Origin: Candidatus Omnitrophota bacterium | Lineage (GTDB): Bacteria > Omnitrophota > Gorgyraeia > Zapsychrales > Fredricksoniimonadaceae | DNA: 64,000 nucleotides | Assembly (NCBI GenBank): GCA_903860135.1 | Contig: CAIOPG010000009.1 | Location: 175,805-239,804 of the forward strand | Direction: 5' to 3' | Shown: one piece after another, positions 27,842 through 47,348 of the stretch | How the letters are laid out: each line of letters starts with the position of its first letter | Numbering within the stretch: the first letter of the stretch is position 1 | Notes under the pieces: generated by a model | What the model saw: the letters and a program-made list of their open reading frames with translations, nothing else | Database searches by the model: none | Told to the model about the DNA's origin: nothing | Made by a program: the position numbers and the translations under genes

Positions 27842-28474
27842 CTAATAACCCCCGGCATTTTCTCGGAAAGTGATGCTGACTTGAGGATTGTCCGTTGTGC
27901 CAGCTGTAAGTGCCCCGGCACTCACAGCCGCGCCAGCAGACGGTGTTTTTCGTCCAACGACGGTCATCTGAAAATAATATTCTCCGGTAGCCCCATCAGC
28001 CACCAGCACAGGATCAGCAATATTGGCATGTGTAAACATATCTTTGACAACATACCCCTCAAAGGTATCTCCCGTAGTACAAGTACCCACTGCCGTCAAT
28101 TCACAACTATATACCGCTGTCTGATCAAGATCACCCGGCTTACTGAAGCAAGTCCAGTTGTCATCTGTGTAAATCTCGGGTGTGAATGCTCCCGATACCT
28201 GGACATCATGCCGAAAACAAAGTGACGAATTGGTGTTATTCAAGTAAATATTTACGCCTGTATCCGAAGGCGATCCATGAAGGCTCCGCACACTCATCCG
28301 TATCTTGTTCACTAAGTATTGAGCTTGGATGTTAATCAAGGCTTCCGAAGAAACATTACTGCCACTCTTGCGCAGTCCATAATCCACACTAAAAATGGCT
28401 GCCATCATGAAGGTGACAATAATGCTCGCCACAATAAGTTCAGCCATTGTAACGGCAGAAGAAGATACTTTCAT
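27842..28474 (-). CDS. minor pilin-like protein (degenerate prepilin N-terminus, 210 aa)
   Basis: Internal ATG 28474 gives MKVSSSA|VTMAELIVASIIVTFMMAAIF. This has a hydrophobic alpha1-N helix with Glu at +5 and Ala at -1. The ORF-track extension to 28621 overlaps the upstream gene. Last gene of the pilin string. Confidence 0.6.
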   Translation of the reverse strand: MKVSSSAVTMAELIVASIIVTFMMAAIFSVDYGLRKSGSNVSSEALINIQAQYLVNKIRMSVRSLHGSPSDTGVNIYLNNTNSSLCFRHDVQVSGAFTPEIYTDDNWTCFSKPGDLDQTAVYSCELTAVGTCTTGDTFEGYVVKDMFTHANIADPVLVADGATGEYYFQMTVVGRKTPSAGAAVSAGALTAGTTDNPQVSITFRENAGGY

Positions 28475-28476
28475 AA

Positions 28477-28824
28477 TCACCAATTTACCGTCACAGTAAC
28501 CTGGCGCGTTGTCCCGAAGCCAGCTACAACCGTGTAACTGGCTGATGTCATCGAGGTGCAATTGGGATAGGATGCCACAGTAACAGCATGCGCACCGAGC
28601 GTAAGCACGCCCGTACTCCATGTAGAACCCGCCACCGACTTATTCAAGCTATCCAGTATCTCTTTACCGCATAACCCCGCAACCATCCTCGCTTCCGATC
28701 CACGCCCCGAGACCCGCGTTTGGACAATGGTAGCCAAAACCCCCGCAGATGCCACCACAAAAATAACAGACGCGACAATAACCTCGGTCATAGAAAAACC
28801 TGCCTGATCCGTATAAAATTTCAT
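28477..28824 (-). CDS. minor pilin/pseudopilin (prepilin-type N-terminal domain, 115 aa)
   Basis: ATG 28824 gives MKFYTDQAG|FSMTEVIVASVIFVVASAGVL, with Gly -1, Phe +1 and Glu +5. ATGA overlap with the upstream stop at 28821. Confidence 0.75.
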   Translation of the reverse strand: MKFYTDQAGFSMTEVIVASVIFVVASAGVLATIVQTRVSGRGSEARMVAGLCGKEILDSLNKSVAGSTWSTGVLTLGAHAVTVASYPNCTSMTSASYTVVAGFGTTRQVTVTVNW

Positions 28825-29210
28825 GGACAATTAGCCCCCGCGCATGAAGGATTAGTTCCGGCCACAACTGGACTTGCTAATGTGACCGTGACCGTCAGAC
28901 CAGATCCAATACTGCCCACACATGTCCCGCTACCACAGGAATACGACACCCCGTCAGCAATAATATGTGTAGCCAACGCCGTATTGATAGCATTGATATC
29001 AGCAGCTACCAGATTAGTGCCGTTGTTATACAAACGATACTGGGCATTGGCGGCATGAATGATACTCAAATTATCCACAACAGAACGCCCGCGCGTGCGA
29101 TCAATCGTCTTAATAAACTGCGGGATAGCCATACCAACCAATATTCCGGAAATGACAAAAATAACCATTAACTCAATCATGGTAAAAGCTTCATTATAAA
29201 GTTTAGTCAT
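28821..29210 (-). CDS. minor pilin, paralog family 2 (129 aa, C-terminal SCAGANCP)
   Basis: ATG 29210 gives MTKLYNEA|FTMIELMVIFVISGILVGMAIPQF. Shares SIIHAANA, AINTAL, YSC and the terminal CxGxxCP with the next two genes. ATGA overlap at 29207-29210. Confidence 0.8.
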   Translation of the reverse strand: MTKLYNEAFTMIELMVIFVISGILVGMAIPQFIKTIDRTRGRSVVDNLSIIHAANAQYRLYNNGTNLVAADINAINTALATHIIADGVSYSCGSGTCVGSIGSGLTVTVTLASPVVAGTNPSCAGANCP

Positions 29211-29581
29211 GGACAACTTGTTCCTGTACATGTCGCAACGCCCGAACTTGTGTTCGGAGTTGTTACAACAAATCCCGTACCCGTAGCCGTGCATTCCGTA
29301 CCTGAAGAACAAGAATATGTGGCACCATCAGCCTTAATATTTAACCCGAGAGCCGTATTTATGGCAGCCACATCTCCAGCCGTAGTATTAGCTCCAGAAC
29401 GTGAAAGAAAGAGGGCATTAGCCGCATGAATAATCGAAATGTTCGTCATGGCCGAACGCGCCTTTGACCGTAAAATAGTTTTTGAAAACTGCGGAACAGC
29501 AAATGCGGCAATGATTGAAATGATGCTCAAAACAACAATAAGTTCAATCAGCGTAAACCCGCTACGCATAAAATACCTCAT
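29207..29581 (-). CDS. minor pilin, paralog family 2 (124 aa, C-terminal TCTGTSCP)
   Basis: ATG 29581 gives MRYFMRSG|FTLIELIVVLSIISIIAAFAVPQF. SIIHAANA, AINTAL, YSC motifs. ATGA overlap at 29578-29581. Confidence 0.8.
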   Translation of the reverse strand: MRYFMRSGFTLIELIVVLSIISIIAAFAVPQFSKTILRSKARSAMTNISIIHAANALFLSRSGANTTAGDVAAINTALGLNIKADGATYSCSSGTECTATGTGFVVTTPNTSSGVATCTGTSCP

Positions 29582-29973
29582 GGGCAACTTGAACCAGAAC
29601 AAGATGGATTTGAGTCACTTAACGCAGTAGCCAACGTGAGCGTCTCTGTAAACCCTGAACCTGTCGCAAGGCATGTCCCTGAATCAGTACAGGAATAAGT
29701 CACTCCATTCGACGTGATCTTTAACTCCAGAGCCGTATTAATGGCCACTAAATTTCCGGCTGTAGATGCATTAACATTTGAATTATTATTACGTAAACGA
29801 TAATACCCATTAGCCGCGTGGATCAGATTAAGATTGGCGATCCCTGCACGTGCATAGGCACGCTTGGTACTTTTTGAAAGAAGCGTGGTCGCAAAAATTG
29901 CTAAAATACCAACAAGCGCCAACACAATTATCATTTCAATGAGCGTAAAAGCCTGACGCATAGTTGGTCTCAT
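29578..29973 (-). CDS. minor pilin, paralog family 2 (131 aa, C-terminal SCSGSSCP)
   Basis: ATG 29973 gives MRPTMRQA|FTLIEMIIVLALVGILAIF. NLIHAANG, AINTAL, YSC motifs. ATGA overlap at 29970-29973. Confidence 0.8.
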   Translation of the reverse strand: MRPTMRQAFTLIEMIIVLALVGILAIFATTLLSKSTKRAYARAGIANLNLIHAANGYYRLRNNNSNVNASTAGNLVAINTALELKITSNGVTYSCTDSGTCLATGSGFTETLTLATALSDSNPSCSGSSCP

Positions 29974-30389
29974 GCGCACGGCGTATTAGGACAAATTTTC
30001 TTAAGTGTGTCCGGACATGAACCACACGAAAAAGCACCCGCTGCAGACACACTAACAGTATATGAACCTGTCGCTGGCTGAACAGCGGATTTTATCGTCA
30101 ATGAAACAGCACCCGTTGATGTATTGCACACAGGTGCCGCAAAATTCGTCGGCGTAACCGTTACATCCAGATTGGCACAAGCGGCACTGGTATCATAGGT
30201 GCTTTTTTCAAGATTATACCTTATCTGAGCCGCGTTGAGCGTGTTAAGGACATTAATCCCTTCAGTAAAGATCGTTTGATCCTTCGCTCCTACCATACGC
30301 GGTACAGCCAACGACGCCAATACACCAATGATAACAATCACGACGATAATTTCAATTAATGTAAAAGCAGACGATCGTATTATATTCAT
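29970..30389 (-). CDS. pilin-like protein (139 aa, Cys-rich C-terminus)
   Basis: MNIIRSSA|FTLIEIIVVIVIIGVLASLAVPRM. The C-terminus is FSCGSCPDTLKKICPNTPCA. Confidence 0.8.
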   Translation of the reverse strand: MNIIRSSAFTLIEIIVVIVIIGVLASLAVPRMVGAKDQTIFTEGINVLNTLNAAQIRYNLEKSTYDTSAACANLDVTVTPTNFAAPVCNTSTGAVSLTIKSAVQPATGSYTVSVSAAGAFSCGSCPDTLKKICPNTPCA

Positions 30390-30401
30390 ACCATTCCAAA
30401 A

Positions 30402-30818
30402 CTAATTCTTCAATGTTGAAAAAATCCCACCCTTTATCTTTGTAACAGTTCCCGCAGGGGCATTCAGCCTAAGCGTGATCGTATCAGCAACTCCTGCACC
30501 ACCTTTTAAAGTAGCTGTCGCACCGCAAGCAGATGCATTCGCACATTCAGTAGCGGTAAATGAATACGTAAAATTAGTTGATGCCGTTGGAAATGAATAG
30601 CCCGATATTGCTGTTATATTATTACATGCCGTATAATCTTCACTGTTCTGAATATAACATTCCTGGACTTTGCGCATCAAAACGCCAAGCTGCATATAAG
30701 CCTCTGCCGCTTTGGCAATATTCACCTGAGCGCTAAGACGCGGCAAAGCTACTGCGGCCAAAACACCAATGATGATAACAACAATGATGATCTCGATTAG
30801 TGTAAAGCCTTTTTTCAT
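30402..30818 (-). CDS. type IV major pilin candidate, tandem copy 1 (138 aa)
   Basis: MKKG|FTLIEIIIVVIIIGVLAAVALPRLSAQ: a very short leader, Gly -1, Phe +1, Glu +5, and four Cys. Near-identical to the next two genes. Confidence 0.88.
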   Translation of the reverse strand: MKKGFTLIEIIIVVIIIGVLAAVALPRLSAQVNIAKAAEAYMQLGVLMRKVQECYIQNSEDYTACNNITAISGYSFPTASTNFTYSFTATECANASACGATATLKGGAGVADTITLRLNAPAGTVTKIKGGIFSTLKN

Positions 30819-30836
30819 TACTTACCCCATTTCCAA

Positions 30837-31256
30837 TTAATTCTTTAATGTAGAGAAAATACCGCCCTTGGTTTTTGTAACAGTTCCCGCAGGGGCATTC
30901 AGGGTAAGCGTGATCGTATCAGCAACTCCTGCACCACCTTTTAAAGTAGCTGTCGCACCGCAAGCAGATGCATTCGCACATTCAGTAGCGGTAAATGAAT
31001 AGGTAAAATTACTTGATGCCGTTGGAAATGAATAGCCCGATATTGCTGTTACATTATTACATGCCGTATAATCTTCACTGTTCTGAATATAACATTCCTG
31101 GACTTTGCGCATCAAAACACCAAGCTGCATATAAGCCTCTGCCGCTTTGGCAATATTCACCTGAGCGCTAAGACGCGGCAGTGCTACTGCGGCCAAAACA
31201 CCAATGATGATAACAACAATGATGATCTCGATTAGTGTAAAACCCTTTTTTTTCAT
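30837..31256 (-). CDS. type IV major pilin candidate, tandem copy 2 (139 aa)
   Basis: MKKKG|FTLIEIIIVV.... Differs from copy 1 by four residues plus one Lys in the leader. Confidence 0.88.
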   Translation of the reverse strand: MKKKGFTLIEIIIVVIIIGVLAAVALPRLSAQVNIAKAAEAYMQLGVLMRKVQECYIQNSEDYTACNNVTAISGYSFPTASSNFTYSFTATECANASACGATATLKGGAGVADTITLTLNAPAGTVTKTKGGIFSTLKN

Positions 31257-31313
31257 ACATTTCCTTTTTTAGTGTTTTATTAGTATGTTCCTGCATTAAT
31301 AATATTTTTGGAA

Positions 31314-31730
31314 TTAATTCTTCAAAGTTGAAAAAATACCACCCTTTGTTTTTGTAACGGTTCCCGCAGGGGCATTCAGCGTAAGCGTGATAACATCCGC
31401 CGCCGCACCACCTTTTAAAGTAGCTGTCGCACCGCAAGCAGATGCATTCGCACATTCAGTAGCGGTAAATGCATATGTAAAATTACTCGATCCAGTTGGA
31501 AAGGAATAACCAGATATCGCTGTTACATTATTGCATGCCGCATAATCTTCACTATTCTGAACATAACATTCTTGGACTTTGCGCATCAAAACACCAAGCT
31601 GCATATAAGCCTCTGCCGCTTTGGCAATATTCACCTGAGCGCTAAGACGCGGCAACGCTACTGCGGCCAAAACACCGATAATGATAACAACAATGATGAT
31701 CTCGATTAGTGTAAAACCTTTTTTTTTCAT
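31314..31730 (-). CDS. type IV major pilin candidate, tandem copy 3 (138 aa)
   Basis: MKKKG|FTLIEIIIVV.... The N-terminal roughly 55 residues are identical to copies 1 and 2, and the C-terminal half is slightly diverged. Confidence 0.88.
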   Translation of the reverse strand: MKKKGFTLIEIIIVVIIIGVLAAVALPRLSAQVNIAKAAEAYMQLGVLMRKVQECYVQNSEDYAACNNVTAISGYSFPTGSSNFTYAFTATECANASACGATATLKGGAAADVITLTLNAPAGTVTKTKGGIFSTLKN

Positions 31731-31787
31731 ACATTTCCTTTTTTAGTGTTTTATTAATATCTTCCTGAATTAAAAATATTTTTAAAA

Positions 31788-32207
31788 TTAATTCTTCAAA
31801 GTTGAGAAAATACCCCCCTTTGTTTTTGTAATCGAACCAGCTGAAATATCCAGCTTAAGAGTGATAACATCCGCAGCGTTCGCATTGGTTCCACTGAATG
31901 AAGCTTGACCTACACAATTATTAGCATCTGGACACAGAGAAGAATTAAAATTATATGTAAAATTAGGAGTTACTGGAAATGTATAACCTGATAGAGCTGT
32001 CACCTCGTTGCATCCCGCCATGATGTCACCATTTTGAATATAACATTCCTGGACTTTGCGCATCAGAACACCCAGTTGCCTATAGGCCTCAACGGCTTTT
32101 GTAGTATTAACCTGATTCGTAACACGAGGCATAGCTATCGCTGCTAAGACTCCAATAATTATAACAACAATTATTACTTCAATCAATGTAAACCCATTTT
32201 TATACAC
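31788..32207 (-). CDS. type IV major pilin candidate, tandem copy 4 (more diverged, about 139 aa)
   Basis: Shares GFTLIE..IIVVIIIGVLAA, QLGVLMRKVQECYIQN and the terminal TKTKGGIFSTLKN with copies 1-3. I favour GTG 32207 (MYKNG|FTLIEV), which gives the same 5-residue leader as the paralogs. The ORF-track start 32222 is also a GTG. Confidence 0.8.
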   Translation of the reverse strand: MYKNGFTLIEVIIVVIIIGVLAAIAMPRVTNQVNTTKAVEAYRQLGVLMRKVQECYIQNGDIMAGCNEVTALSGYTFPVTPNFTYNFNSSLCPDANNCVGQASFSGTNANAADVITLKLDISAGSITKTKGGIFSTLKN

Positions 32208-32281
32208 GTATATCCTACCCACATGTTATCTGTATACAAATATGACATATTTAAATAAATAAAGCGAATATAAATAATTAA

Positions 32282-33508
32282 TTATCCTCCGGTAGATAAA
32301 GAAAGTATAGGTAGAAACATCGCGATAACAATTAGACCTATTACACCACCCATGATAACAAGCATAACGGGTTCAATAAGAATGCTGAATCGCTTCAAAA
32401 ATTCTTCAACATTAGCTTTATAATATATGGCGACATTATTCAACATCTTGCCAAGCTCACCGGTTTCCTCGCCAACACGGATCATCTGCACCGTCATCGA
32501 AGGGAAAAATCCACTTCTTTCCATTGGATCTGCCAAAAGCTGCCCCTCACGTACGGCTTCACGCACATTTCTTATAACTTCCGCACAAACCACATTATCC
32601 ACCAGTCTCTCCGATATCTCCAAAGAATAAAGAATGGGGACACCGCTTTCCATAAGGGTGGACATTTGAGATGTAAACTTCTCAATTACAATTAATTTTA
32701 TCATACCACCGAAAATAGGAACTTTAAAAAGAAAAGTCTCAAATTGCTTTCTTCCAAGAGGTGTTTTAATGTAATTCATGAAAAGAAAAATGCTTCCGGC
32801 CCCTCCAGCAATAAGTATAAAAAATCTCTCTTTCAATAATTTGAAAATTGACATCATTATGACCGTGATAGTCGGGAGCTTGATATCCATATCAGAAAAA
32901 ATACGTTCAAATGTAGGCCCGACAAAAAGAGCGAAAAACAAAACAGCTCCGATACAAATAAAACAAAGAACCATCGGATAAACAAGGGCTCCTATAATAG
33001 TAGACTTGAACTTGGCTGTATCCTCCATATATTGTGTCAACTTGTTGAGAACTTTCGGTAATGTACCAGATGCTTCACCAACCTCAATAAGACTGACCCA
33101 AAAAGCAGTAAACACCTTGGGATATTTTGAAATAGCGCTACTGAAAGTACGACCCTGTTCAACATCTGTGACTACCGCCTCAATGATGACGGTTAACCCA
33201 CGACTTTCCAGCTGAGAGCTGATGATCTTGAGCGATCGCATTAACAAAACACCTGCTCCCATCATCGCAGAAAGTTGACGCGCAAAAGAAACAACATCAT
33301 TTAATGAAATATTATTGTGCGAAAACACCCGCTTCTTTGCAACTGACGTCACAGGCTGTTGATTCTCAACAAACTGTTTTACAGCGGTTACAAAAAGCCC
33401 TTTTTGCTGTGCAAACTTAACAGCCTGCTGATCATTAATGGACTCTACAACCTCATTAAATACATGCCCTGAATTATCTTTAGCAGTAACAAGAAATTTG
33501 GCCATCAA
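32282..33508 (-). CDS. pilC: type IV pilus/T2SS platform protein (GspF/PilC family)
   Basis: 408 aa. Two T2SSF repeats (FARQLSAMMGAGVLLMRSL; FTSQMSTLMESGVPILYSL), three TM segments, and a C-terminal IEPVMLVIMGGVIGLIVIAMFLPI. Confidence 0.9.
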   Translation of the reverse strand: MMAKFLVTAKDNSGHVFNEVVESINDQQAVKFAQQKGLFVTAVKQFVENQQPVTSVAKKRVFSHNNISLNDVVSFARQLSAMMGAGVLLMRSLKIISSQLESRGLTVIIEAVVTDVEQGRTFSSAISKYPKVFTAFWVSLIEVGEASGTLPKVLNKLTQYMEDTAKFKSTIIGALVYPMVLCFICIGAVLFFALFVGPTFERIFSDMDIKLPTITVIMMSIFKLLKERFFILIAGGAGSIFLFMNYIKTPLGRKQFETFLFKVPIFGGMIKLIVIEKFTSQMSTLMESGVPILYSLEISERLVDNVVCAEVIRNVREAVREGQLLADPMERSGFFPSMTVQMIRVGEETGELGKMLNNVAIYYKANVEEFLKRFSILIEPVMLVIMGGVIGLIVIAMFLPILSLSTGG

Positions 33509-33523
33509 TTTCCCCAGATCAAT

Positions 33524-35233
33524 TTATATAACAATAGATAAAATTTCCTCAAGGCTCGTGACACCTTCTTCAACCTTCTTCATCCCAACTTCAAAAAGTG
33601 TCGCCATTCCAGCTTTAGATGCTGCGTCCTTCAATTCGTCATAGGAAACATTGTTACCGATCATACGCCGTATAACATCATTAATGGCAAGAACCTCTGA
33701 TACGACCATGCGTCCCCTGTATCCGGTGTGCCCGCATTTATCGCACCCTTTAGCGCGATAAATCAAATCGGTAGACAACTTGATAGACCCCAGATCTTCC
33801 GGCCTCGGTTCATAGGGCTCTTTGCAATCGGCGCATAACTTACGCGCTAAGCGCTGGCTCACAATCATCGTTAATGACGGTGTTAATAAATATGAGGGGA
33901 CACCTATATCCATCAAGCGGCTTATCGCTGACGGTGCGTCATTGGTATGCAGTGTTGAAAGGACAAAGTGACCTGTTAATGCCGCACGCACACATATCTC
34001 TGCTGTCTCAAGATCACGTATTTCACCAACCATAATGATATCCGGATCCTGTCGAAGAAACGATCGTAACGCCTGTGCAAATCCAAAGCCAATATCAGGA
34101 CGCACATGAACCTGGTTAATTCCATCAATGCGGAACTCAACAGGATCTTCTGCTGTCATAATATTCTTGGTGCGATCAAAAACTTCAGAAAGAGAAGAAT
34201 AAAGGGTCGTCGACTTACCACTACCCGTAGGTCCTGTTATAAGAAAAAGACCATACGGAACTTTAAGTGCTTTACGGATGAGTTCTAACTGGGACGCATT
34301 AAATCCAAGCGTAGCCAAATCAAGTTTTACTGCATTCTTATCCAGGATACGCATAACCACTTTCTCTCCCCAAACGGTAGGAACGGTGGACACACGCAGA
34401 TCAACAACACGGTTTTGATCAAACTTTACAGAAATACGCCCATCCTGCGGCAATCGCCTCTCGGCAATGTCAAGCCTAGAAATGATCTTAATGCGCGATA
34501 CGATCGAAGCATGAAGATGTTTTGCCGGCGGAGGGATTTGATAAAGATCACCGTCGATACGATAACGAAGTTCGATCTTGTCCTTAAAAGGTTCGATATG
34601 AATATCACTTGCCCGGTCATCAATAGCCTGCCTGATAATAAGATCCACAAGCTTGATGATCGGCGCTTCTTCGGCTGTTGCGATCAACCTGTCAAGACTT
34701 AACTCCGACTCAGATTTATCATCACCGGATGTTGAGAAATTACTCGAGTCATTCTGCGCTCTTTCAACCGCCTTTCCCCAAGCACCACCCTCATCGGCCA
34801 GATAAAACCGCTCCAATGATTTTAGAATATCGGTACGTGTCGCAATGACAAAGTTTATTTCACAACCAGTCATCTTTTTCAAATTATCGATCATAATAAG
34901 ATCAAATGGATTAAAGATCGCGCATGTCAGTGAATTACCATTCCGATTAAGTAACAATACAAGATTATCTACAGCATACTGATACGAAATAAGCTTTTCA
35001 AGGCCCTGCCCTTTTTGAGGATTCAATAGGCCTGAAGCTTCGGAGGCATATGGAATAAGAAGCTGTGTCCCAAGAGCCACAGCCAAGTCGCTTTCATTAA
35101 TAAATCCCATTTTGACCAAAATTTCTCCGACATGACTCTTGTCGGTCTTTTGGGCATCTATAGCAGACTGGAACTGGGCTTCGGTAATTAAGCCCTTTTT
35201 AATAAGTATTTCACCAAGCTTTAACCGTGCCAT
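33524..35233 (-). CDS. pilB: type IV pilus assembly ATPase (GspE/PilB family) with N-terminal MshEN-type domain
   Basis: 569 aa. Walker A GPTGSGKST, Walker B DPDIIMVGEIRD, His box GHFVLSTLHTNDA, and a tetracysteine CADC...CDKC. The N-terminus holds two 24-residue MshEN-like motifs. Confidence 0.92.
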   Translation of the reverse strand: MARLKLGEILIKKGLITEAQFQSAIDAQKTDKSHVGEILVKMGFINESDLAVALGTQLLIPYASEASGLLNPQKGQGLEKLISYQYAVDNLVLLLNRNGNSLTCAIFNPFDLIMIDNLKKMTGCEINFVIATRTDILKSLERFYLADEGGAWGKAVERAQNDSSNFSTSGDDKSESELSLDRLIATAEEAPIIKLVDLIIRQAIDDRASDIHIEPFKDKIELRYRIDGDLYQIPPPAKHLHASIVSRIKIISRLDIAERRLPQDGRISVKFDQNRVVDLRVSTVPTVWGEKVVMRILDKNAVKLDLATLGFNASQLELIRKALKVPYGLFLITGPTGSGKSTTLYSSLSEVFDRTKNIMTAEDPVEFRIDGINQVHVRPDIGFGFAQALRSFLRQDPDIIMVGEIRDLETAEICVRAALTGHFVLSTLHTNDAPSAISRLMDIGVPSYLLTPSLTMIVSQRLARKLCADCKEPYEPRPEDLGSIKLSTDLIYRAKGCDKCGHTGYRGRMVVSEVLAINDVIRRMIGNNVSYDELKDAASKAGMATLFEVGMKKVEEGVTSLEEILSIVI

Positions 35234-35242
35234 AATTTAATC

Positions 35243-36745: not shown

Positions 36746-36749
36746 ACTA

Positions 36750-37265
36750 TCAATCTTTCAATAATAACTTGTAAAGAAATTCGTTGTAATCTATTTCCAC
36801 ACGGCCTTTGCGGATAGCCAAAATCCTTACCCCCTCTGATCTATCCCCCAAACCCAATATATTTCCATTTAAAATAACCATTGGATTCCTTGTTTTATAA
36901 AATATTCCTGTCACTTTCAGCACAGGCAACGAGGCTATTGATAATTTCCTTACAGGTTGCGCTGAGGGTATCGCAACAAAGTGCTTTATTTCAGGAATAA
37001 CAGCAACTATCGGTCTATCTACTACTGGCTTAACTAAATTATCAGCTTCCTTGCGAAAATCTTTACTAACAAGATCTGGTCTGGCTTTAAACGGATGGAA
37101 AGGCTCCCCAAGAGACTCTATCATCATTTCAAACGGAAGCTTATTAGTCTCATTGGCGTAAGAAAGAGTTGAATTAAAATGAAATAATTGAAAACTATAG
37201 ATAAAAAGAATATTATACATTAAAAAAAGATGATGCCTACTTCTTTTTAAAATTTTTATGTTCAT
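36750..37265 (-). CDS. PilP/GspC-like periplasmic protein (hypothetical)
   Basis: Start at ATG 37265 (MNIKILKRSRHHLFLMYNILFIYSFQLF...SYA|NE), a plausible signal peptide. The C-terminus LKVTGIFYKTRNPMVILNGNILGLGDRSEGVRILAIRKGRVEIDY resembles the PilP/GspC HR beta-domain. Lies just upstream of the secretin gene. The start is uncertain (alternatives 37301 and 37220). Confidence 0.5.
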   Translation of the reverse strand: MNIKILKRSRHHLFLMYNILFIYSFQLFHFNSTLSYANETNKLPFEMMIESLGEPFHPFKARPDLVSKDFRKEADNLVKPVVDRPIVAVIPEIKHFVAIPSAQPVRKLSIASLPVLKVTGIFYKTRNPMVILNGNILGLGDRSEGVRILAIRKGRVEIDYNEFLYKLLLKD

Positions 37266-37854
37266 TATCTTCCACCAGTTGAAGCAACGAAATGGTAACA
37301 TCCAGCGTCATCGCATCCGTCTGGACTCCTGAATTAACCGGATTGTACTTAATCAACAGGCTATCCAATTTGATCATGTACCCGGAAGATTCCATATCAT
37401 GAACAAATAATAGCATATCCTTGACATTAAGGGAAGAAGCACTAAAACTCATACAAATAGAACGAAAAAAACCATCATTGCTAGTCTGCAATGGATTAAA
37501 AGCATCAATTGTAATTCGTCGCCGCGTGGCACGCCCTGTAACATAAGATATAAAATCAGCCTTGACCAATCCCAAAGGCATCTTGCACATATAATCAGTC
37601 AGATATTTGTTGCTTTGCTCAAGATCCTGGATAGGCTGTCTTTTTGATTGCAAAATCTTTTTTCTCGACGCAAGAGACTGATATTGATTAAAATTTTTAG
37701 TTGTAAGAAAAACTATTACACAAAATCCCAATAAAACAATCAAAGAATTAGTCGCTAAAACTAAATTCTGATTTACATAATGGTTACAATCCTTAATAAA
37801 TTTTGAAGGATTATTTAGATATATTTCGAAATTCTTTAAATCATCAAGATTCAT
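37237..37854 (-). CDS. PilO-like bitopic membrane protein (hypothetical)
   Basis: ATG 37854 forms an ATGA overlap with the upstream stop. One TM helix (LVLATNSLIVLLGFCVIVFL), then a coiled-coil-like segment and a C-terminal alpha/beta region. Position between PilM-N and the PilP-like gene matches pilO. Assigned by architecture and position only. Confidence 0.5.
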   Translation of the reverse strand: MNLDDLKNFEIYLNNPSKFIKDCNHYVNQNLVLATNSLIVLLGFCVIVFLTTKNFNQYQSLASRKKILQSKRQPIQDLEQSNKYLTDYMCKMPLGLVKADFISYVTGRATRRRITIDAFNPLQTSNDGFFRSICMSFSASSLNVKDMLLFVHDMESSGYMIKLDSLLIKYNPVNSGVQTDAMTLDVTISLLQLVEDNEHKNFKKK

Positions 37855-39455
37855 TTCGCCTCGCACGTAATCGAAAACGCTGTGACTTTTCTATTATCAT
37901 ATTCTCGAACCTGTAAAGAAACAATCTTAATTTGTGTGAAATTAGTGGCGAACAAATTATCGCTATTTAAAGCATTAAAGAAATGATTAACCCTTTCAAA
38001 TTCTATATTGTTGTCCTTCAAAGACACATACCCCGAAAAGGTCATTGCCGTCTTGGTCTGAAGTGAATAATAATCAACCTCTTTGTTCCCGGGCTCAGGG
38101 ACCTTGCGCGCCGAAACAGGCTCATCTTTAAAAGACAAACTAACAGACTCAAGCCAAAATCCGGATGGCAGTCGTTTGACCAGCCGCACCAACATCTTTG
38201 TCGCCCGTGCATCGAAAGGCAATGATTTCAATGAAAATAACTTCTTGACATTCTTCATTTTCTTCTGAACGGCGTCTGACTCATCTATATCAACGTATTC
38301 CCCGATCTCCTGCTCAAGATTAACAACTTCCTGTCTAAACTTAGACAGAAGCTGATCAGCAAAGAATGCAACAGAAAAGATCAGTGTAAAAACACCGGCC
38401 CCCACCGCCAAGGGCAAAACCAATGCTTGCCTCCTCTGGTCAATTTCAACTTGCTTGAGAGAAACCTGCTGTTTGGAACCTTCAAACAAATTAAAGTCAA
38501 TAACAGTAACCACTTTACTCATCATGGCCACGCCGTAGGCATACACAGCCGCCATTGTATTGCAATCATTGTGATCTACAAGTCTAAAAATATCAACAAT
38601 CTCAACATTGACCCCGAGTTCCTCTCCCATCTTGTCCCACAAAGCATTATTTCCGCCAATGGATATGGCCACCATTCTCTGGACTTCCTCCCCGCCATAC
38701 TGACGCAAGAAGAATTCGGAAGAAATACGGATCTCATTGAAAACTTTGGAACGTAGCTCATCATCGATCTGAAGAGTGCCAACACCCTGATGCACACCTC
38801 CCTGAAGATTAAACTCACGGATAAACTTGACATACCCTTTTTCACAAATAAGGAGTTCTCCGATATAACCATCGACATAAACAATCGCCGTTAATTCATC
38901 GGGATCAACGATCTTTCTAAAAACCAATGCACGGTAAAGACTAGCCGACGCCGGTTCACTGTAAACAACATTTATACCTGCTTGCATTAAAGCATCCGCA
39001 TGTTTTTCAAAAACATCTTTACGGATAGCAACAAATATAATGCCAATCTGCCGCGGATTACTTCCTAGAATATTCGAAGGAAAATATGTGTACGACAACT
39101 CATCAATTGGGAAAGGAATATACTTCTTGGCTTCGAAGATAACAACATCCTGTATCTCGCTTGACTTCATCCACGGAATACTGAACCAGCGAATAATAAT
39201 ATCTTTTGAAGGGATAGAAAGAAATGTTTCCTGCGTTGAAAAACCTTTATTTCGAACAGATTTTTGCAGTGCATCTAGAATCTGCATATCATGCGGTAAA
39301 GACTTCTTGTCAGCAGTGGAAGCCACGTCTTCCGGCGATACAAAAGGAACAAATGTCCCTATGGCGGGTGCGTTGCTCTCCAGTTGAACCAGCGTGAATC
39401 CGCTTGATCCCGAGTAAACCCCTAATCGCTTCTCACTGGCCATACCCAACCTCAT
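37851..39455 (-). CDS. pilM: PilM-PilN fusion (actin-like ATPase-fold pilus assembly protein joined to a TM helix and periplasmic PilN-like domain)
   Basis: N-terminal LGVYSGSSGFTLVQLE and FEAKKYIPFPIDEL resemble PilM motifs. A TM helix near residue 345 (ALVLPLAVGAGVFTLIFSVAFFA) is followed by about 170 aa. The likely true start is ATG 39443 (GAGG 6 nt upstream); the ORF-track start is 39455. Confidence 0.7.
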   Translation of the reverse strand: MRLGMASEKRLGVYSGSSGFTLVQLESNAPAIGTFVPFVSPEDVASTADKKSLPHDMQILDALQKSVRNKGFSTQETFLSIPSKDIIIRWFSIPWMKSSEIQDVVIFEAKKYIPFPIDELSYTYFPSNILGSNPRQIGIIFVAIRKDVFEKHADALMQAGINVVYSEPASASLYRALVFRKIVDPDELTAIVYVDGYIGELLICEKGYVKFIREFNLQGGVHQGVGTLQIDDELRSKVFNEIRISSEFFLRQYGGEEVQRMVAISIGGNNALWDKMGEELGVNVEIVDIFRLVDHNDCNTMAAVYAYGVAMMSKVVTVIDFNLFEGSKQQVSLKQVEIDQRRQALVLPLAVGAGVFTLIFSVAFFADQLLSKFRQEVVNLEQEIGEYVDIDESDAVQKKMKNVKKLFSLKSLPFDARATKMLVRLVKRLPSGFWLESVSLSFKDEPVSARKVPEPGNKEVDYYSLQTKTAMTFSGYVSLKDNNIEFERVNHFFNALNSDNLFATNFTQIKIVSLQVREYDNRKVTAFSITCEAK

Positions 39456-39511
39456 TGCTTTTATAAAAATGAATACTTTTAGCTAATAATCAATCGCAAG
39501 AAACGTATGCA

Positions 39512-39841
39512 TCAGTAACTAACATCCATCGTGAATGCCCTTGTTGCCCCTGGTCCTCCGCCGGCTACTTGGGTATAATGAACCGAATATGTTGTTCCGT
39601 CAACATATTCAGAGAAATCCGTAAGTGTTGTCGAACCACCGGCGTAAATCTCGCGTGCCCACCATAAAGCTTTTTTGGCAATAAGTTCCGCCTGAAGATG
39701 CTTTCTTTCACGTTCGGAAATAAGTGCCTGTGAATAATTTCGCGATAACACACCTAAAACCAAGATTGACATAAGCATAACAGCCGCAATAACTGTCAGT
39801 AAAATTACCCCCCGCTCACTACCGTATTCTCTTCTAATCAT
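39512..39841 (-). CDS. PilX_N/GspK-like pseudopilin-like protein (about 109 aa, no Glu5)
   Basis: Internal ATG 39841 gives MIRREYGSERGVILLTVIAAVMLMSILVLGVLS, resembling the ERGxALxxVL N-terminus of PilX/GspK-type proteins. The ORF-track extension to 39952 overlaps the upstream gene. Confidence 0.5.
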   Translation of the reverse strand: MIRREYGSERGVILLTVIAAVMLMSILVLGVLSRNYSQALISERERKHLQAELIAKKALWWAREIYAGGSTTLTDFSEYVDGTTYSVHYTQVAGGGPGATRAFTMDVSY

Positions 39842-40073
39842 GAATTCCCTCCTCAAGATAACTCTGACAAAGTGGACAACGCACAACCTCAGTCTTTCCG
39901 TTACTGATAATGATATGGCTGCAATAGGGGCATTGCCTAACAATACCCGCACTTGATGCCTCCCTGTTTACGCCATCATCCACAACGGCATATTTAAACC
40001 ACATAAACCCAAAAAAAATAATCATGACAGAAAGACAAAGACTTACGCCCAAGGCAATATCTATCGTGATCAT
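39834..40073 (-). CDS. small membrane-anchored zinc-ribbon protein (79 aa)
   Basis: N-terminal TM helix (IALGVSLCLSVMIIFFGFMWF), then CPYC-x14-CPLC. 4-nt overlap with the upstream TonB-like gene and 8-nt overlap with the downstream gene. Confidence 0.55.
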   Translation of the reverse strand: MITIDIALGVSLCLSVMIIFFGFMWFKYAVVDDGVNREASSAGIVRQCPYCSHIIISNGKTEVVRCPLCQSYLEEGIHD

Positions 40074-40498
40074 GGCAACCTCAAACGAAGATCTAATGGT
40101 GCTACAGGAACATCCTCAACAACTGCCACAGAAGGTTCATCGCGATCCTCAGGAACAACCCTTACACCGGAAAAATGAAATATATCCTTATCCTCCGGTG
40201 GCATACTTCTATAAAAAGATTCAGGTTTCTCTGCCTGCAAGGAGCGCAACCACCCTCCTGATAAGTATAATGGTACGGTACTATCATTAATCTTTTCTTC
40301 AACTTGCAGGACTGAAACTTCATGACGCGAAGGAATAACTTCCTGCGGGCTTAAAATATTGCCCAAGAAGACAACATCGAGTTTGTACGTGTTGTTAACA
40401 GCTCCTTTAAATGAAAAGATCACAAAAGTTAAAGCGATGGCGTGCATGATGCCCGCCGTTAATACCCCTATCATCGGAGAATGCCACTTCACTAGCAT
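40070..40498 (-). CDS. TonB/TolA-like N-terminal anchor protein lacking a recognisable C-terminal TonB domain (142 aa)
   Basis: Single TM helix containing His (GVLTAGIMHAIALTFVIFSF), followed by an acidic/Pro-containing tail. Sits where tonB/tolA follows exbD/tolR. 1-nt overlap with the exbD stop. Confidence 0.5.
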   Translation of the reverse strand: MLVKWHSPMIGVLTAGIMHAIALTFVIFSFKGAVNNTYKLDVVFLGNILSPQEVIPSRHEVSVLQVEEKINDSTVPLYLSGGWLRSLQAEKPESFYRSMPPEDKDIFHFSGVRVVPEDRDEPSVAVVEDVPVAPLDLRLRLP

Positions 40499-40896
40499 TA
40501 CTTCTCACGATCCGTAGCAATATTAATATGCTCGATCCCCATGCTGCGGGCAAGATTCAGGATGTCCACAACACGACCAACCGATGCCCGGTGATCCGCC
40601 TTGATCAAGATGGCTCTGGCATTGCCGCCAGGAAATGCTAAAAACTCTTTAAGTTCACCCAGCGTGATCAAATGATTATTCACATACACAACATTCTCGC
40701 CCGTCACAATGATCGTCAAACTTGACGGAGAGGCTATGTCGCTTGTCACTCCTTTGGGCAAGGCGATCTTTAAGAACGATGATTTTGAAATAAATAAAAT
40801 AAACGCTATAAAACCCAATAGAATAAATAATACATTCAAAAAAGGAAAGAAATTAAATTTTGGCACACATAATTTCAAATGCCTACGGAAATCCAT
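40498..40896 (-). CDS. ExbD/TolR family biopolymer transport protein, with Asn at the canonical TM Asp position
   Basis: 132 aa. FNFFPFLNVLFILLGFI aligns to E. coli ExbD INVTPFIDVMLVLLIIF and TolR INIVPLLDVLLVLLLIF. The periplasmic domain ends ILIKADHRASVGRVVDILNLARSMGIEHINIAT. Confidence 0.85.
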   Translation of the reverse strand: MDFRRHLKLCVPKFNFFPFLNVLFILLGFIAFILFISKSSFLKIALPKGVTSDIASPSSLTIIVTGENVVYVNNHLITLGELKEFLAFPGGNARAILIKADHRASVGRVVDILNLARSMGIEHINIATDREK

Positions 40897-40899
40897 GCC

Positions 40900-41568
40900 C
40901 TAAGCCCCTCCGGCTAAAGGAACATTAATAATCTGCGTCATTTCACGCACAAGCGTCGAAGCAACCTGCTCCATCTGCAGAACAGTACCCTCGATCACCT
41001 TAAGAAAATACCGGTGCGCGATCATGGCAAAGATCCCGACAAGGGAAGCCGCCGCTGTTGTAATAAGCGCTTGCCCAAGACCAGCCGTAACATCCATCAA
41101 ACTGGCAGGATTTACAGCTACCGCACGAAGCTGTATTGTATGCAATAACCCACACAAACCAACCACCGTCCCCAGAAGGCCGATCAAAGGCACTAATTGA
41201 GCCATAAATACTAAAAGATCCAACCCTTTTTCCATCGCGCGTACCTCATACCTGGCCGCATCTTCCATCGCCACTTGTATCTCTGGTGCCGATTGACCAA
41301 AACTCAACAATCCTGCTTTTAAAATTCGTGCCATCGAAGAATCTGCGGCATCACACGCTGAAAGGGCACCCATGGTATTATTGTTTTGAATAAAACCGAT
41401 CACTTGAATAGAAAGGACAGCAATACCTTCGCGCACTTCTCCTAGAAACAAGAATCTTTCAATGACCAAAGCCGTAACACTGACGGAACATATCAAAACA
41501 GGAACCATGACAGGACCACCTGTCAATAATAATCGCCATGCGCCAATCCCGGTTACAGCATCGATCAT
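40900..41568 (-). CDS. MotA/TolQ/ExbB family proton-channel-like protein, with Gln at the canonical TM3 Glu position
   Basis: 222 aa with three TM helices. LIGLLGTVVGL (TM2) and AGLGQALITTAAASLVGIFAMIAHRYF align to E. coli ExbB PGIAEALLATAIGLVAAIPAVVIYNVF. Confidence 0.85.
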   Translation of the reverse strand: MIDAVTGIGAWRLLLTGGPVMVPVLICSVSVTALVIERFLFLGEVREGIAVLSIQVIGFIQNNNTMGALSACDAADSSMARILKAGLLSFGQSAPEIQVAMEDAARYEVRAMEKGLDLLVFMAQLVPLIGLLGTVVGLCGLLHTIQLRAVAVNPASLMDVTAGLGQALITTAAASLVGIFAMIAHRYFLKVIEGTVLQMEQVASTLVREMTQIINVPLAGGA

Positions 41569-41586
41569 TTAGGCATCCTTCGGCTA

Positions 41587-44070
41587 TTATTTCTTCCCGC
41601 TGCGTTCTTGGATCAACTCAATCCGTTCATTGGCAAACTTACTCTCGTCAACCTTCAAGTCAACAACCTTCCTGTACGCAGTAATCGCCTTTTCTAATTC
41701 ATTATTGTTTTCAAAAATTCTAGCGATACGCAAATATGCTTTTATAACCCATGGGATTTCTTTCGAATAAATATACGGTATCTTGAAATAAGCCTCTAGT
41801 GCCTTGTCAGATTCATTCAACACCTCGTAAACATCTCCCACAGAAAATTGAATCCCGGCACTGGTTACCTGGCTTTCACCTTTATCCGCTTCGATAGCCT
41901 CCGCGTATACAAACAACTCTTCGTTAAATTTCTTCTCCCGACGGTATATCTGCGCTATCTTCATTAAAGCATCACGTTTATACTGCGGACTTGTCGCTAT
42001 AATACCATGGTATGTTTCAACCGCCTTGTCAGTATCCAGTTCCTTAACAAATATACCAGCAATAGCAATCTTTGCCTTGGGGTAAAGTAATGGATCAATT
42101 TGGGGATCAACCTGCCTAAAATACGCGAGAGCTTTTTCAAAGTTCTCCAAAGACAAATACGCACGACCCAATTCAAAACAAAGAAGACCTTGCTTGACCG
42201 TCTCGGGCAAATCAAACAAGCCCTTCGTATAGAGTTCTACGGCCACCTGATAGAGACCTTCTGTCATATTGTACTGCCCCAGCCACAGAACACACTCGAT
42301 CTCCGCTTCGGTGTGAGGGTAACGATGCACGATATCTTTAAAACGTGCAAGTGCTTCCTTCGTGTCACCCATAGCATCATATGTCTTGGCAAGCCCTACA
42401 TACGCATTCTGGAGTATCTGCTGTTCATCAGGATAAAGCCTAAGCACATCATTAAAGATAACTATCGCCCTGTCAAACTGCTTCAAATTAAAATGCGTCA
42501 TCGCCAACACATAACGGGCTTCCGCCACAAACTGAACCGGAACAACAGGGTCAGAAATAAAAGAGGTCAGTATTTCAACAGCCGTCGCCCATTCCTTTCT
42601 ACGGAAATACGCCAAACCAAGATAATAACGGGATTCAGAAATATACTTACTGCCGGGATAATTAGCTTTTAATGCCTGAAGTGCCAAAACAGCAGCATCA
42701 ATCTTGCCGGATTTAAGAAGCGCAATCCCTAAATAATATTGGACATGATCTTCATAAGGCGTGTCCGGCATTTCATGAAGGATCTTGTCATAGACATCGA
42801 TCGCCTTGTCCATAACGCCAGCCTCCTGATAGGCATCCGCAATCTGGCTATACGCACTCACTTTTATTATCTTGTTATCCGACTTGTCAGCTACCAGCTG
42901 AAACATAGCGACAGCCTTGTCAATATCACCGCTCTTGGAATAAGTCCAAGCTAAACCGAACCTAGCTTTCTCGATCATTTTATCCCGTCCTGCCGCACCG
43001 CTAGAAATAGCAATGATCATCTCATAATCTTTGATAGCGGCCACATAATCATTAACAAGATACCAGGCATTGGCACGCCCCAAATAAGTATCGGCTATTT
43101 TAAGACTCGCCGGAAACCGCGCGATAACTTCCGAATAAATTGAGGCCGCTTCAACATATTTCTCCTGGGCTATAAAAAGACTCGCCTTGGCCAAAAGAAC
43201 ATCTTCTTCGGATACCTTTGCCGCTTTAACCGCAAATTGCGCTTCATCGAACGTCTTTAACGCCTCCACATATTTCTTAAGTTTGATCTGACACCAGCCC
43301 GTCCCGATCAGCGATGCGGCCATCGAAGATGGCGCCGTTGTCAATGATCTGGCTTTCTGATAAGCATCCGAGGCCTTGTCATATTGTTCCAGATTATACA
43401 AAGCCTCGGCCACATTGAATTGGGCTTCATAAAGACGGGTCGAACCGGGATGCCCTGAGATATAATTATTGAAAGCCACAATAGCCGCTTCATACTGAAC
43501 AGCATTGTAGTCACACTCTCCCAGCTTGAACGCGGCATCATCGGACAAGTTGTTAGCAGGAAACTTATCGATCAAGGCCTGGAATATCTTTTTGGCCGAC
43601 ACATAATCTTCCTTCTGAAAATAAGACCAGGCGAGCGAATAATATGCCTGGGGCGCATACAGGGATGCCGGAAAAGCATCAATAACTTGACGGTATTTCT
43701 CTTGGGCTTTGGGAATATCGCCACCCTTGAAATATGTTTCTCCCAACCAGAAAAGAGAGGCATCCTTGTATTCAGGCAACGCTACCAGATCCTTAAAAAC
43801 ATTAAAGGCCTGCACATACTGTTGCTTAAAGAAATAACTTTGCCCTTCGAGCAATCTCGCTTCAACAACTTTTGTGGTTTGCGGGAATTCAGTTAGAAGT
43901 TGATTGACGTAACGCAGAGAAACATCATAAAAACCATCTTCAAATGCGCGCTGGGCTACAATGAAAAGATCTTTCTCATTAGAATCAACAGCAAAAGATG
44001 GTGTCGCAACGATGAGCAACGAAATGCCCATGATGTACAGGATACATTGTAGATTTTTTCTTATTTTCAT
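41587..44070 (-). CDS. large secreted tetratricopeptide-repeat protein (827 aa)
   Basis: Signal peptide MKIRKNLQCILYIMGISLLIVATPSFA|VD. The remainder is almost entirely TPR-like A/Y/L-patterned 34-mers (for example AQFNVAEALYNLEQYDKASDAYQKA). First gene of the locus, 18 nt upstream of exbB. Confidence 0.8.
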   Translation of the reverse strand: MKIRKNLQCILYIMGISLLIVATPSFAVDSNEKDLFIVAQRAFEDGFYDVSLRYVNQLLTEFPQTTKVVEARLLEGQSYFFKQQYVQAFNVFKDLVALPEYKDASLFWLGETYFKGGDIPKAQEKYRQVIDAFPASLYAPQAYYSLAWSYFQKEDYVSAKKIFQALIDKFPANNLSDDAAFKLGECDYNAVQYEAAIVAFNNYISGHPGSTRLYEAQFNVAEALYNLEQYDKASDAYQKARSLTTAPSSMAASLIGTGWCQIKLKKYVEALKTFDEAQFAVKAAKVSEEDVLLAKASLFIAQEKYVEAASIYSEVIARFPASLKIADTYLGRANAWYLVNDYVAAIKDYEMIIAISSGAAGRDKMIEKARFGLAWTYSKSGDIDKAVAMFQLVADKSDNKIIKVSAYSQIADAYQEAGVMDKAIDVYDKILHEMPDTPYEDHVQYYLGIALLKSGKIDAAVLALQALKANYPGSKYISESRYYLGLAYFRRKEWATAVEILTSFISDPVVPVQFVAEARYVLAMTHFNLKQFDRAIVIFNDVLRLYPDEQQILQNAYVGLAKTYDAMGDTKEALARFKDIVHRYPHTEAEIECVLWLGQYNMTEGLYQVAVELYTKGLFDLPETVKQGLLCFELGRAYLSLENFEKALAYFRQVDPQIDPLLYPKAKIAIAGIFVKELDTDKAVETYHGIIATSPQYKRDALMKIAQIYRREKKFNEELFVYAEAIEADKGESQVTSAGIQFSVGDVYEVLNESDKALEAYFKIPYIYSKEIPWVIKAYLRIARIFENNNELEKAITAYRKVVDLKVDESKFANERIELIQERSGKK

Positions 44071-47063: not shown

Positions 47064-47348
47064 TTACTTCTTGCCCTTCTTCGCCACGACCTTCTTCACA
47101 GCCTTTTTCACAGCCTTCTTCTTCTTTCCGCCCTTCACCATGGCAGCAGAAGAAATATCGCCCTGCTTATCGATAAAATAGAGGAAACCAGATTCCTTCT
47201 TAATACCGACCTTGGCAACCTTCTTGGGCTTGCCGCCCTTCTTGTCGCCGCGCGCCATCGCCGCAGAAGAAACATCGCCATCCTTATCAATAAAATAAAG
47301 GAAACCCTTTTCTTTCTTGACGCCAACTTTAGCAACTTTCTTAGCCAT
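47064..47348 (-). CDS. small lysine-rich basic protein with an internal tandem duplication and a KKAVKK tail (94 aa)
   Basis: Two 32-residue repeats, KKVAKVG[VI]KKE.GFLYFIDK.GD[VI]SSAAM..G, followed by GKKKKAVKKAVKKVVAKKGKK. Strong SD (AAAGGGGGGTGAATA ATG) and its own flanking intergenic regions. Confidence 0.7.
   Translation of the reverse strand: MAKKVAKVGVKKEKGFLYFIDKDGDVSSAAMARGDKKGGKPKKVAKVGIKKESGFLYFIDKQGDISSAAMVKGGKKKKAVKKAVKKVVAKKGKK

Follow-up and report, generated by a model that had tools for sequence, protein, structure and literature searches.

What kind of machine is encoded when a run of type IV filament genes opens with homologs of an ExbB–ExbD energizer, and do the two sets of genes belong together? 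The question is raised by 22 consecutive open reading frames (ORFs), all on the minus strand at positions 27842-44070 of a 64,000-nucleotide stretch of a Candidatus Omnitrophota genome (hereafter the window, meaning the whole stretch), annotated here from the ORF list and with hidden Markov model (HMM) searches (Table 1). We think it probable, if well short of certain, that these genes form a vertically inherited chromosomal locus for a type IVa pilus (T4aP)-like filament, accompanied by an accessory module resembling the Poc complex of Pseudomonas. The locus is an ordinary Omnitrophota pilus cluster, conserved across the phylum. A sequence-only reading of the same DNA had listed these genes, and our HMM searches and ORF checks agree with it on their place, order, and strand; the locus is no peculiarity of this genome, and we find instead a phylum-wide conserved block.

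By homology, the parts list is that of a pilus driven by PilB and PilC, with a secretin in the outer membrane and an alignment complex in the inner one, and judged by sequence affinity this core is T4aP-like. The assembly ATPase scores 621.7 against the PilB model TIGR02538 (equivalog cutoff 675.65) versus 586.8 against GspE, which is also under its own cutoff, and at full length it matches the PilB structures of Myxococcus xanthus (498 bits) and Geobacter (489 bits) in the Protein Data Bank (PDB) ahead of GspE (412 bits). A profile of PilM-PilN fusion orthologs matches M. xanthus PilM (residues 6-218, E=3e-30) and PilN (residues 336-446, E=0.004), and every homolog found is fused, at 489-544 aa. 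The sequence-only reading had allowed that its PilO-like and PilP-like calls might prove to be unrelated proteins. The PilO call stands: the window protein alone has no significant match, but its ortholog profile does (Table 1), and Pfam PilO is matched by 18 of 22 orthologs. “PilP-like” holds for the position of the next gene and not for its sequence, as orthologs match the GspB-type T2SSB family (PF16537; 18/21, best E=1.2e-7) and never PilP (0/21), and the lipobox Cys is absent. The window protein by itself gives only a sub-threshold T2SSB match, its PDB matches to OutC and GspB fall short of significance, and an AlphaFold model from three sequences was poor (pLDDT, the model confidence score, 41.7). 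The secretin scores 195.1 against PilQ, 195.7 against GspD, and 124.7 against MshL, all below the NCBIfam cutoffs, and 144 bits against the HofQ model; its best PDB matches are PilQ, by a small margin. For the platform protein, GspF (316.9) leads PilC (291), both under cutoff. The N-terminus of PilB (residues 1-57) scores 56.9 against NF053729, a model of the MshE-type motif that binds cyclic di-GMP (cutoff 38). Read by eye against the MshEN motif, however, the first Arg of both tandem motifs seems to have given way to Lys and His in this protein, which makes binding of cyclic di-GMP by this PilB uncertain.

Several of these components would also suit a pseudopilus of the T2SS (type II secretion system) kind, exporting proteins such as lytic enzymes or giant adhesins without building a surface pilus. 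The PilM-PilN fusion has the architecture of GspL, a GspB-type domain occupies the PilP position, GspF is the top NCBIfam match of the platform, GspD ties with PilQ for the secretin, and the locus has no PilT; T2SS-like loci have also been noted beside giant genes in the Omnitrophota literature. Among the alignment proteins, PilM-PilN corresponds to GspL, PilO to GspM, and PilP to the HR domain of GspC (Berry and Pelicic, PMC4471445), and the statement in the earlier reading that T2SS operons lack PilM/N/O/P is thus a matter of names and not of homology. What tells against a secretion system is the identity of the parts: PilB outscores GspE over the full length; the fusion matches PilM and PilN, with no GspL match in Pfam, NCBIfam, or PDB searches; the secretin has N0 and N1 and is without N2/N3; and neither a GspA ATPase nor a GspC with HR and PDZ domains is present in the locus. 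The major pilin is amplified to four copies, there is no giant gene or carbohydrate-active enzyme gene in the window, and TXSScan-based work labels the Omnitrophota systems T4aP. We regard an export pseudopilus as very unlikely.

The evidence for vertical inheritance comes from relatives. A scan of one genome per species returned 113 matches, 80 of whose loci were fetched, nearly all labelled Omnitrophota, and the ORFs of the fetched loci were searched iteratively with profiles of the window proteins. All homologs of the PilM-PilN fusion come from Candidatus Omnitrophota metagenome-assembled genomes (MAGs). The shared order reads panC, aspDH, a small Lys-rich protein, uvrA, the TPR protein, ExbB, ExbD, the TonB-like anchor, the Zn-ribbon protein, and PilX, continuing with PilMN, PilO, the PilP-position protein, secretin, PilB, PilC, the pilins, and rsmE; from panC to rsmE it is kept in almost all loci whose flanks are long enough, and at PilMN identities as low as 22%. 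The synteny comparison that the earlier reading proposed thus finds the same order in about 80 species-level Omnitrophota genomes, uvrA and rsmE flanks included. Because the order recurs with its flanks across the phylum, the locus is ancestral to the phylum and vertically inherited. Its base composition might have been taken for that of a horizontally acquired island: GC content is 0.35-0.46 within the locus versus 0.50-0.55 in the flanks, a dip of about 0.10 in this window. This was rejected, given that locus and flanks are syntenic phylum-wide and that, in 55 of 61 relatives, GC is lower in the pilus core than in the housekeeping genes next to it (mean 0.44 versus 0.47). Low GC is a property of the locus and no sign of recent transfer.

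Gene packing is less informative than it first appears. Single-strandedness and tight junctions had been noted for the locus, and both turn out to be window-wide: the entire 64 kb is coded on the minus strand, and the median intergenic gap is +5 nt inside the locus versus -4 nt in the flanking housekeeping genes, with rsmE starting 2 nt past the final pilin gene. Co-regulation cannot be read from spacing because the housekeeping flanks are packed as tightly. Of the largest gaps reported earlier, those of 56-59 nt are right, and that of 73 nt arises if pilA1 starts at the GTG at 32207. A promoter and terminator scan of the sequence was uninformative, with counts no higher than in shuffled sequence, and tRNA and Rfam scans gave no matches. 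Every family-assigned long ORF in positions 1-64000 is on the minus strand, and the plus-strand ORFs in the list are nested within those; GC skew is negative in all 2-kb bins of the window, consistent with a position on one replichore and a very strong gene-strand bias.

The upstream genes are harder to place than the pilus core. The existence of an Exb-type module ahead of the pilus genes, as first read from the letters, is confirmed, and the module is conserved. Its leading TPR protein scores 212 bits against Pfam TPR_6 and 216 bits against YbgF (TIGR02795) over six stretches, and where related loci extend far enough upstream, an ortholog almost always comes directly after uvrA. The best NCBIfam match of ExbB is TolQ, at 62.3 bits versus a cutoff of 221, and ExbD reaches 33.7 against the TolR model (cutoff 127). 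The small protein that follows, whose start overlaps the ExbD stop by 1 nt, has a low-complexity, variable linker and a short conserved C-terminal motif of the PLRL type in the ortholog alignment. It has no Pfam or NCBIfam match, and no variant carries a TonB_C domain, longer orthologs included. The Zn-ribbon protein matches no curated family, and its four Cys are invariant in 64 of 64 orthologs. Outside the phylum, the nearest relatives of ExbB are proteins of about 207 aa and about 35% identity, and two of the contexts that we read are proteobacterial, with the order (lolCD)-comEC-exbB-exbD-(msbA)-lpxK-kdsB. We take comEC-exbB-exbD-lpxK to be the context of Pseudomonas aeruginosa pocA/pocB (PA2983/PA2982) as well; the only Poc locus tag that we confirmed is PA14_25500 for pocB. 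In Pseudomonas, PocA, PocB, and TonB3 are homologs of ExbB, ExbD, and TonB that are required for T4aP production and polar localization, and Carter et al. (PMC5285504) proposed that TonB3 contacts the N0 domain of PilQ, which resembles the signaling domain of TonB-dependent receptors.

Does the module belong to the pilus? The junctions speak for an association with pilX in particular. In 80% of 61 loci, the Zn-ribbon gene either overlaps pilX or is separated from it by no more than 10 nt; the median is -8 nt, which is also the overlap in the window. Inside the module, the median junctions range from -1 to -4 nt. The interval between pilX and pilMN has a median of 323 nt and is never 10 nt or less across these relatives, measuring 56 nt in the window. 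Because the conserved large gap falls after pilX, the spacing suggests two likely units rather than one, [TPR-ExbB-ExbD-TonB-like-Zn ribbon-PilX] and [PilMN-PilO-PilP-secretin-PilB-PilC].

A number of observations nevertheless weigh against the reading we prefer. Unrelated housekeeping genes (uvrA, rsmE, panC) lie in the same synteny block, and adjacency alone is no proof of a functional link. In a subclade (e.g. L066, L068, L069, L074, L075, and L077), the TPR gene, pilX, and the core are kept and ExbB, ExbD, the TonB-like gene, and the Zn-ribbon gene are absent. Conversely, a MAG of Pedosphaera sp. (Verrucomicrobia) encodes ExbB, ExbD, a 257-aa TonB-like protein, and a transmembrane (TM) Zn-ribbon protein (L087, 3370-5408), the last matching the profile of the Omnitrophota Zn-ribbon protein at E=5e-8, with no pilus genes in the 11 kb of contig read around them. 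The name TonB-like derives only from gene position and the TM His. On the side of the pilus, no component of the locus reaches an NCBIfam equivalog cutoff; Pfam and NCBIfam scans of long ORFs found neither a prepilin peptidase nor a PilT-type ATPase in the window, and signature motifs of PilT and PilD occur neither in the window nor within ±10 kb in 86 related loci. Pfam scans of 30 long ORFs of the window outside the locus likewise found no second T2SSE ATPase. The earlier description of the machine as self-contained is, in this light, unproven.

Some of the same facts would follow if the five upstream genes were an independent envelope-maintenance system of the Tol/Poc type that merely adjoins the pilus genes in a frozen synteny block. 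A module that stands without pilus genes in Pedosphaera and is missing from a subclade that keeps the pilus speaks for such independence, as do uvrA and rsmE in the same block and spacing that is tight genome-wide. There are likenesses to Tol-Pal too, in the TolQ match of ExbB, the CpoB/YbgF-like units of the TPR protein, and the TM His of the TolA/TonB type. Against this, the scores are far below cutoffs, the anchor is without TolA domain III, scans of long ORFs found no TolB or Pal in the window, and in Pseudomonas the related Poc complex has a T4aP connection of its own. Coupling of the module to a pilin gene tells against it too, with the large conserved gap falling after pilX and not before it. 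We think an independent maintenance system doubtful, if worth taking seriously, and the functional link between module and pilus about evenly balanced.

Two regulator-like genes occur in the divergent subclade, a DUF2582 winged-helix gene before pilX, where the missing module would stand, and an HTH_17 gene before pilMN (at 8814-9059 and 9816-10016 in L066; likewise in L068, L069, L074-L077, L082, L084, L085, and L005). L005 carries both of these genes together with the Exb module. These genes may be dedicated regulators.

If the module does serve the pilus, does it do so as a motor? A search of the PDB with the window ExbD alone gave no matches; with the ortholog profile, E. coli ExbD and TolR could be aligned over the TM segment “PFIDV”, which holds D25 of ExbD and D23 of TolR, and at this place the window protein has Asn21. 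Of 66 ExbD orthologs, 36 carry Asp in this column, 29 carry Asn, and one carries Thr. The nearest relatives of the window with this ExbB/ExbD pair (L001-L014, L016-L018, and L020) have Asn, with L015, which has Asp, as the sole exception. Opposite the Glu conserved in TM3 of TolQ and ExbB, alignment to PDB TolQ places Q166 of the window ExbB, and the two positions covary (D/E 31 and N/Q 16 versus N/E 5 and D/Q 4, ExbD residue first). Q166 might be read as a second “dead” residue, but relatives from Simiduia and Pedosphaera share this Gln, and we do not treat it as a defect. At matched PilB divergence, pairwise identity in Asp-less lineages is 0.35-0.52 for ExbD and 0.40-0.45 for ExbB, versus 0.55-0.68 and 0.55-0.69 in Asp lineages; this faster divergence fits a relaxed or changed constraint. 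The ORFs of the module are nonetheless intact, and the TM threonines of ExbB and the His of the TonB-like protein are retained. Because Asn stands where ExbD normally has its essential, proton-relaying Asp, the module that was labelled “energy-transducer-like” probably does not work as a canonical proton motor in this genome and would have a scaffold, structural, or regulatory role instead. ExbD of the Pedosphaera MAG also lacks the TM Asp, with PFAMV in place of PFIDV, which hints at an uncharacterized Asp-less ExbBD subfamily in the Planctomycetes–Verrucomicrobia–Chlamydiae (PVC) group.

The sequence-only reading counted ten prepilin-like genes, which is correct for those after pilC, nine of which carry the N_methyl motif; the total is eleven once PilX is included. 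Copies 2-4 of the major pilin are 93-97% identical, copy 1 is 63-65% identical to them, and the tandem repeats recur every 435-474 bp. Since one or two copies are usual among the relatives, the amplification to four is lineage-specific. Orthologs of pln5, pln6, pln9, and pln10 are conserved across loci, and from weak matches the downstream pilins together with PilX resemble a core minor-pilin set of the FimU/PilV/PilW/PilX type. One major pilin also has a weak match to ComP_DUS, and this brings in a further possibility, that the locus is primarily a competence pilus that gathers nucleotides or DNA for an ultra-small cell with a reduced genome. The short N0-N1 architecture of the secretin is like that of DNA-uptake secretins of the HofQ type, the locus lies among the DNA-repair genes uvrA, recA, and recX, and the proteobacterial relatives of the Exb pair adjoin comEC. 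Yet the HofQ and ComP_DUS scores are far below cutoffs, ComEA, ComEC, and DprA are absent from the window, comEC adjoins the proteobacterial genes within the wider msbA-lpxK synteny, and function is in any case not readable from sequence. A primary role in competence seems to us quite unlikely.

Table 1. Genes of the pilus locus, in transcription order, and two neighboring genes, with positions in the 64,000-nucleotide window
Feature	Position	Strand	Match or sequence feature
Periplasmic TPR protein, 827 aa	41587..44070	-	YbgF/BamD-like units; N-terminal signal-peptide-like sequence
ExbB/TolQ/PocA-like membrane protein	40900..41568	-	MotA_ExbB 79 bits, above Pfam cutoff
ExbD/TolR/PocB-like protein	40498..40896	-	Pfam ExbD 57.6 bits, above cutoff
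TonB/TolA-like bitopic anchor, 142 aa	40070..40498	-	TM helix with invariant His
Zn-ribbon protein, 79 aa	39834..40073	-	N-terminal TM helix; C4 (CPYC...CPLC)
PilX/GspK-like minor pilin, 109 aa	39512..39841	-	No Glu5; NF037980 GspK N-terminus E=8.5e-7; ComGG E=1.9e-4
PilM-PilN fusion, 530-534 aa	37851..39455	-	GspL-like architecture; PilM_2, TIGR01175, weak C-terminal PilN match
PilO	37237..37854	-	Ortholog profile vs M. xanthus PilO, E=1e-12
PilP-position protein	36750..37265	-	Signal/anchor helix, disordered arm, small C-terminal GspB (T2SSB)-type beta domain
Short secretin, 500 aa	35243..36745	-	N0/STN + N1 + secretin, no AMIN; Secretin 129.5 bits, Secretin_N, STN
PilB-type assembly ATPase	33524..35233	-	T2SSE 455 bits; N-terminal MshEN (cyclic di-GMP-binding type) domain
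PilC/GspF platform protein	32282..33505	-	T2SSF in two stretches, 186 bits
Four tandem major-pilin paralogs	31788-32222, 31314-31730, 30837-31256, 30402-30818	-	N_methyl motif
Six further pilin-like genes (listed singly below)	27842..30389	-	N_methyl motif in 5/6; successive 4-nt overlaps, starts verified
pln5	29970-30389	-	
Three pilin-like paralogs	29578-29973, 29207-29581, 28821-29210	-	46-48% identical to each other
PilV-like gene	28477-28824	-	Weak PilV match
210-aa pilin-like gene	27842-28474	-	Prepilin-like N-terminus, no HMM match
94-aa Lys-rich protein	47064-47348	-	Between aspDH and uvrA
571-aa polytopic membrane protein	25365-27080	-	C-terminal TPRs; just downstream of rsmE

Taken as a T4aP-like pilus with a Poc-like accessory module, the locus would work much as other T4aP do. 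By analogy with T4aP biology, PilB hexamers would drive PilC, so that processed pilins are extracted from the inner membrane and polymerized, with the prepilin peptidase and any retraction ATPase presumably encoded elsewhere in the genome. The PilM-PilN fusion, PilO, and the GspB/PilP-like protein would couple this platform to the N0-N1 secretin, through which the fiber would exit. The tip would be primed by the PilX/GspK-like, PilV-like, and other minor pilins, and the shaft supplied by the four tandem major pilins. The TPR protein, from its context, would most likely be a periplasmic scaffold that assembles or stabilizes a secretin without AMIN or an identifiable pilotin. ExbB, ExbD, the TonB-like anchor, and the Zn ribbon would make up an inner-membrane module similar to PocAB-TonB3, presumably co-transcribed and translationally coupled with pilX, and assisting pilus assembly or positioning, possibly by touching the N0/STN domain of the secretin as Poc is proposed to do; in this genome it would probably be a scaffold or regulator in place of a proton motor. 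For the cell, the pilus would most likely serve to attach to surfaces or hosts, perhaps taking up DNA as well; attachment is also the published proposal for the phylum (PMC10066038). A bolder extension holds that a PocAB/ExbBD-type stator is built into the pilus operon across this phylum of ultra-small and probably host-attached bacteria, with a truncated TonB-like tether and a membrane Zn-ribbon partner, driven by the proton motive force to act on the secretin N0/STN or the pilus in Asp lineages and serving as a non-motor scaffold in others. We consider this rather unlikely; if it were true, the unexplained connection between Poc and T4aP in Pseudomonas would have a counterpart in nature in which the genes are linked.

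How much of this was already known? With TXSScan as one of several annotation tools, Seymour et al. (2023; PMC10066038) had found T4aP clusters in almost every member of the Omnitrophota, and they remarked on T4aP expression in V. archaeovorus. They also described a type 2/3 F-ATPase next to the T4aP cluster in many genomes, an adjacency found neither here nor in the 86 loci that we examined. The pilus itself is thus already known. Neither ExbB nor secretins are mentioned in this context in the Omnitrophota literature we searched, and a module of the ExbB/ExbD type tied to a pilin gene is apparently undescribed there. Three things appear to be new: the gene-level architecture, in which a PilM-PilN fusion, a GspB-type protein at the PilP position, and a short secretin are combined in a single locus; the conserved tie, at the level of the operon, between pilX and a Poc-like module of ExbBD, TonB-like, and Zn-ribbon proteins; and the decay of the Asp in the module of about half the lineages, this one included. 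In the literature searched, ours is the first gene-by-gene anatomy of the conserved Omnitrophota pilus locus, and it matters as type IV pili are thought to be central to the attachment of Omnitrophota to hosts or prey. It also lends comparative-genomic weight to the puzzle of why pili of Pseudomonas need Poc, a paralog of ExbBD-TonB, since most Omnitrophota species have a homologous module in physical linkage with a pilin gene. The repeated loss of the ExbD Asp, with the faster evolution that accompanies it and the loss of the module in one clade, amounts to a natural experiment on motor versus scaffold.

Two neighbors of the locus deserve a brief description. The Lys-rich protein keeps its position in most related loci; it has no Pfam match and contains an internal duplication in which the unit VAKVG[VI]KKE.GFLYFIDK.GD[VI]SSAAM occurs twice. 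The 571-aa membrane protein on the other side recurs after rsmE in a fair share of related loci (about 14 of 86 profile hits), and its counterpart in L004 matches PMT_2, a family of GT-C glycosyltransferases; it could be a glycosyltransferase that acts on pilins or the envelope.

How, then, does the locus compare with filament and energizer systems described elsewhere? The notion of a mixed type IV pilus/T2SS layout within one locus is borne out, in that T4aP-type sequences are combined with an organization that is MSH- or T2SS-like: a single locus, no PilT or PilD, a GspL-like fusion, and a GspB-like protein at the PilP position. With T4aP such as that of M. xanthus, it shares the best matches of the ATPase, PilM, PilN, PilO, and, by a small margin, the secretin, a gene order in which alignment genes precede the secretin, and core minor pilins together with a major pilin. 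It differs in the PilM-PilN fusion, the GspB-type domain at the PilP position, the AMIN-less secretin, and the absence of PilT and PilD from the locus, and its scores are below the NCBIfam equivalog cutoffs. T4aP genes are, moreover, usually spread over several loci, whereas the Omnitrophota machine occupies one; PilT was mandatory in the 2019 TXSScan model of T4aP, and the mannose-sensitive hemagglutinin (MSH) pilus is a single-locus system without a prepilin peptidase (Denise et al., PMC6668835).

The MSH pilus is accordingly a close match in organization, as a single locus without prepilin peptidase or PilT, with an MshEN-bearing ATPase and a TPR protein in the locus. Differences are seen in the secretin, which scores 124.7 against MshL (cutoff 250.2), under its scores for PilQ and GspD, in an ATPase nearest to PilB, and in the absence of an MshM/ExeA-like AAA ATPase from the Omnitrophota locus; MSH pili are also known mainly from Proteobacteria. 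Alignment genes, secretin, ATPase, platform, pilins, and further pilins follow one another in MSH loci, and the order in the Omnitrophota locus is the same. T2SS comes close at the alignment complex, by the GspL architecture of the fusion, PilO as the equivalent of GspM, and the T2SSB domain, and departs from it where the ATPase is PilB-like. The module, for its part, resembles PocA-PocB-TonB3 of Pseudomonas, in which homologs of ExbB, ExbD, and TonB are likewise tied to T4aP. The Omnitrophota version differs in having a TonB-like protein without the C-terminal domain, an extra TM Zn-ribbon protein, and, in this genome, an ExbD without its Asp; and whereas the Pseudomonas genes are unlinked to pil genes, here the module sits inside the pilus locus, coupled to pilX.

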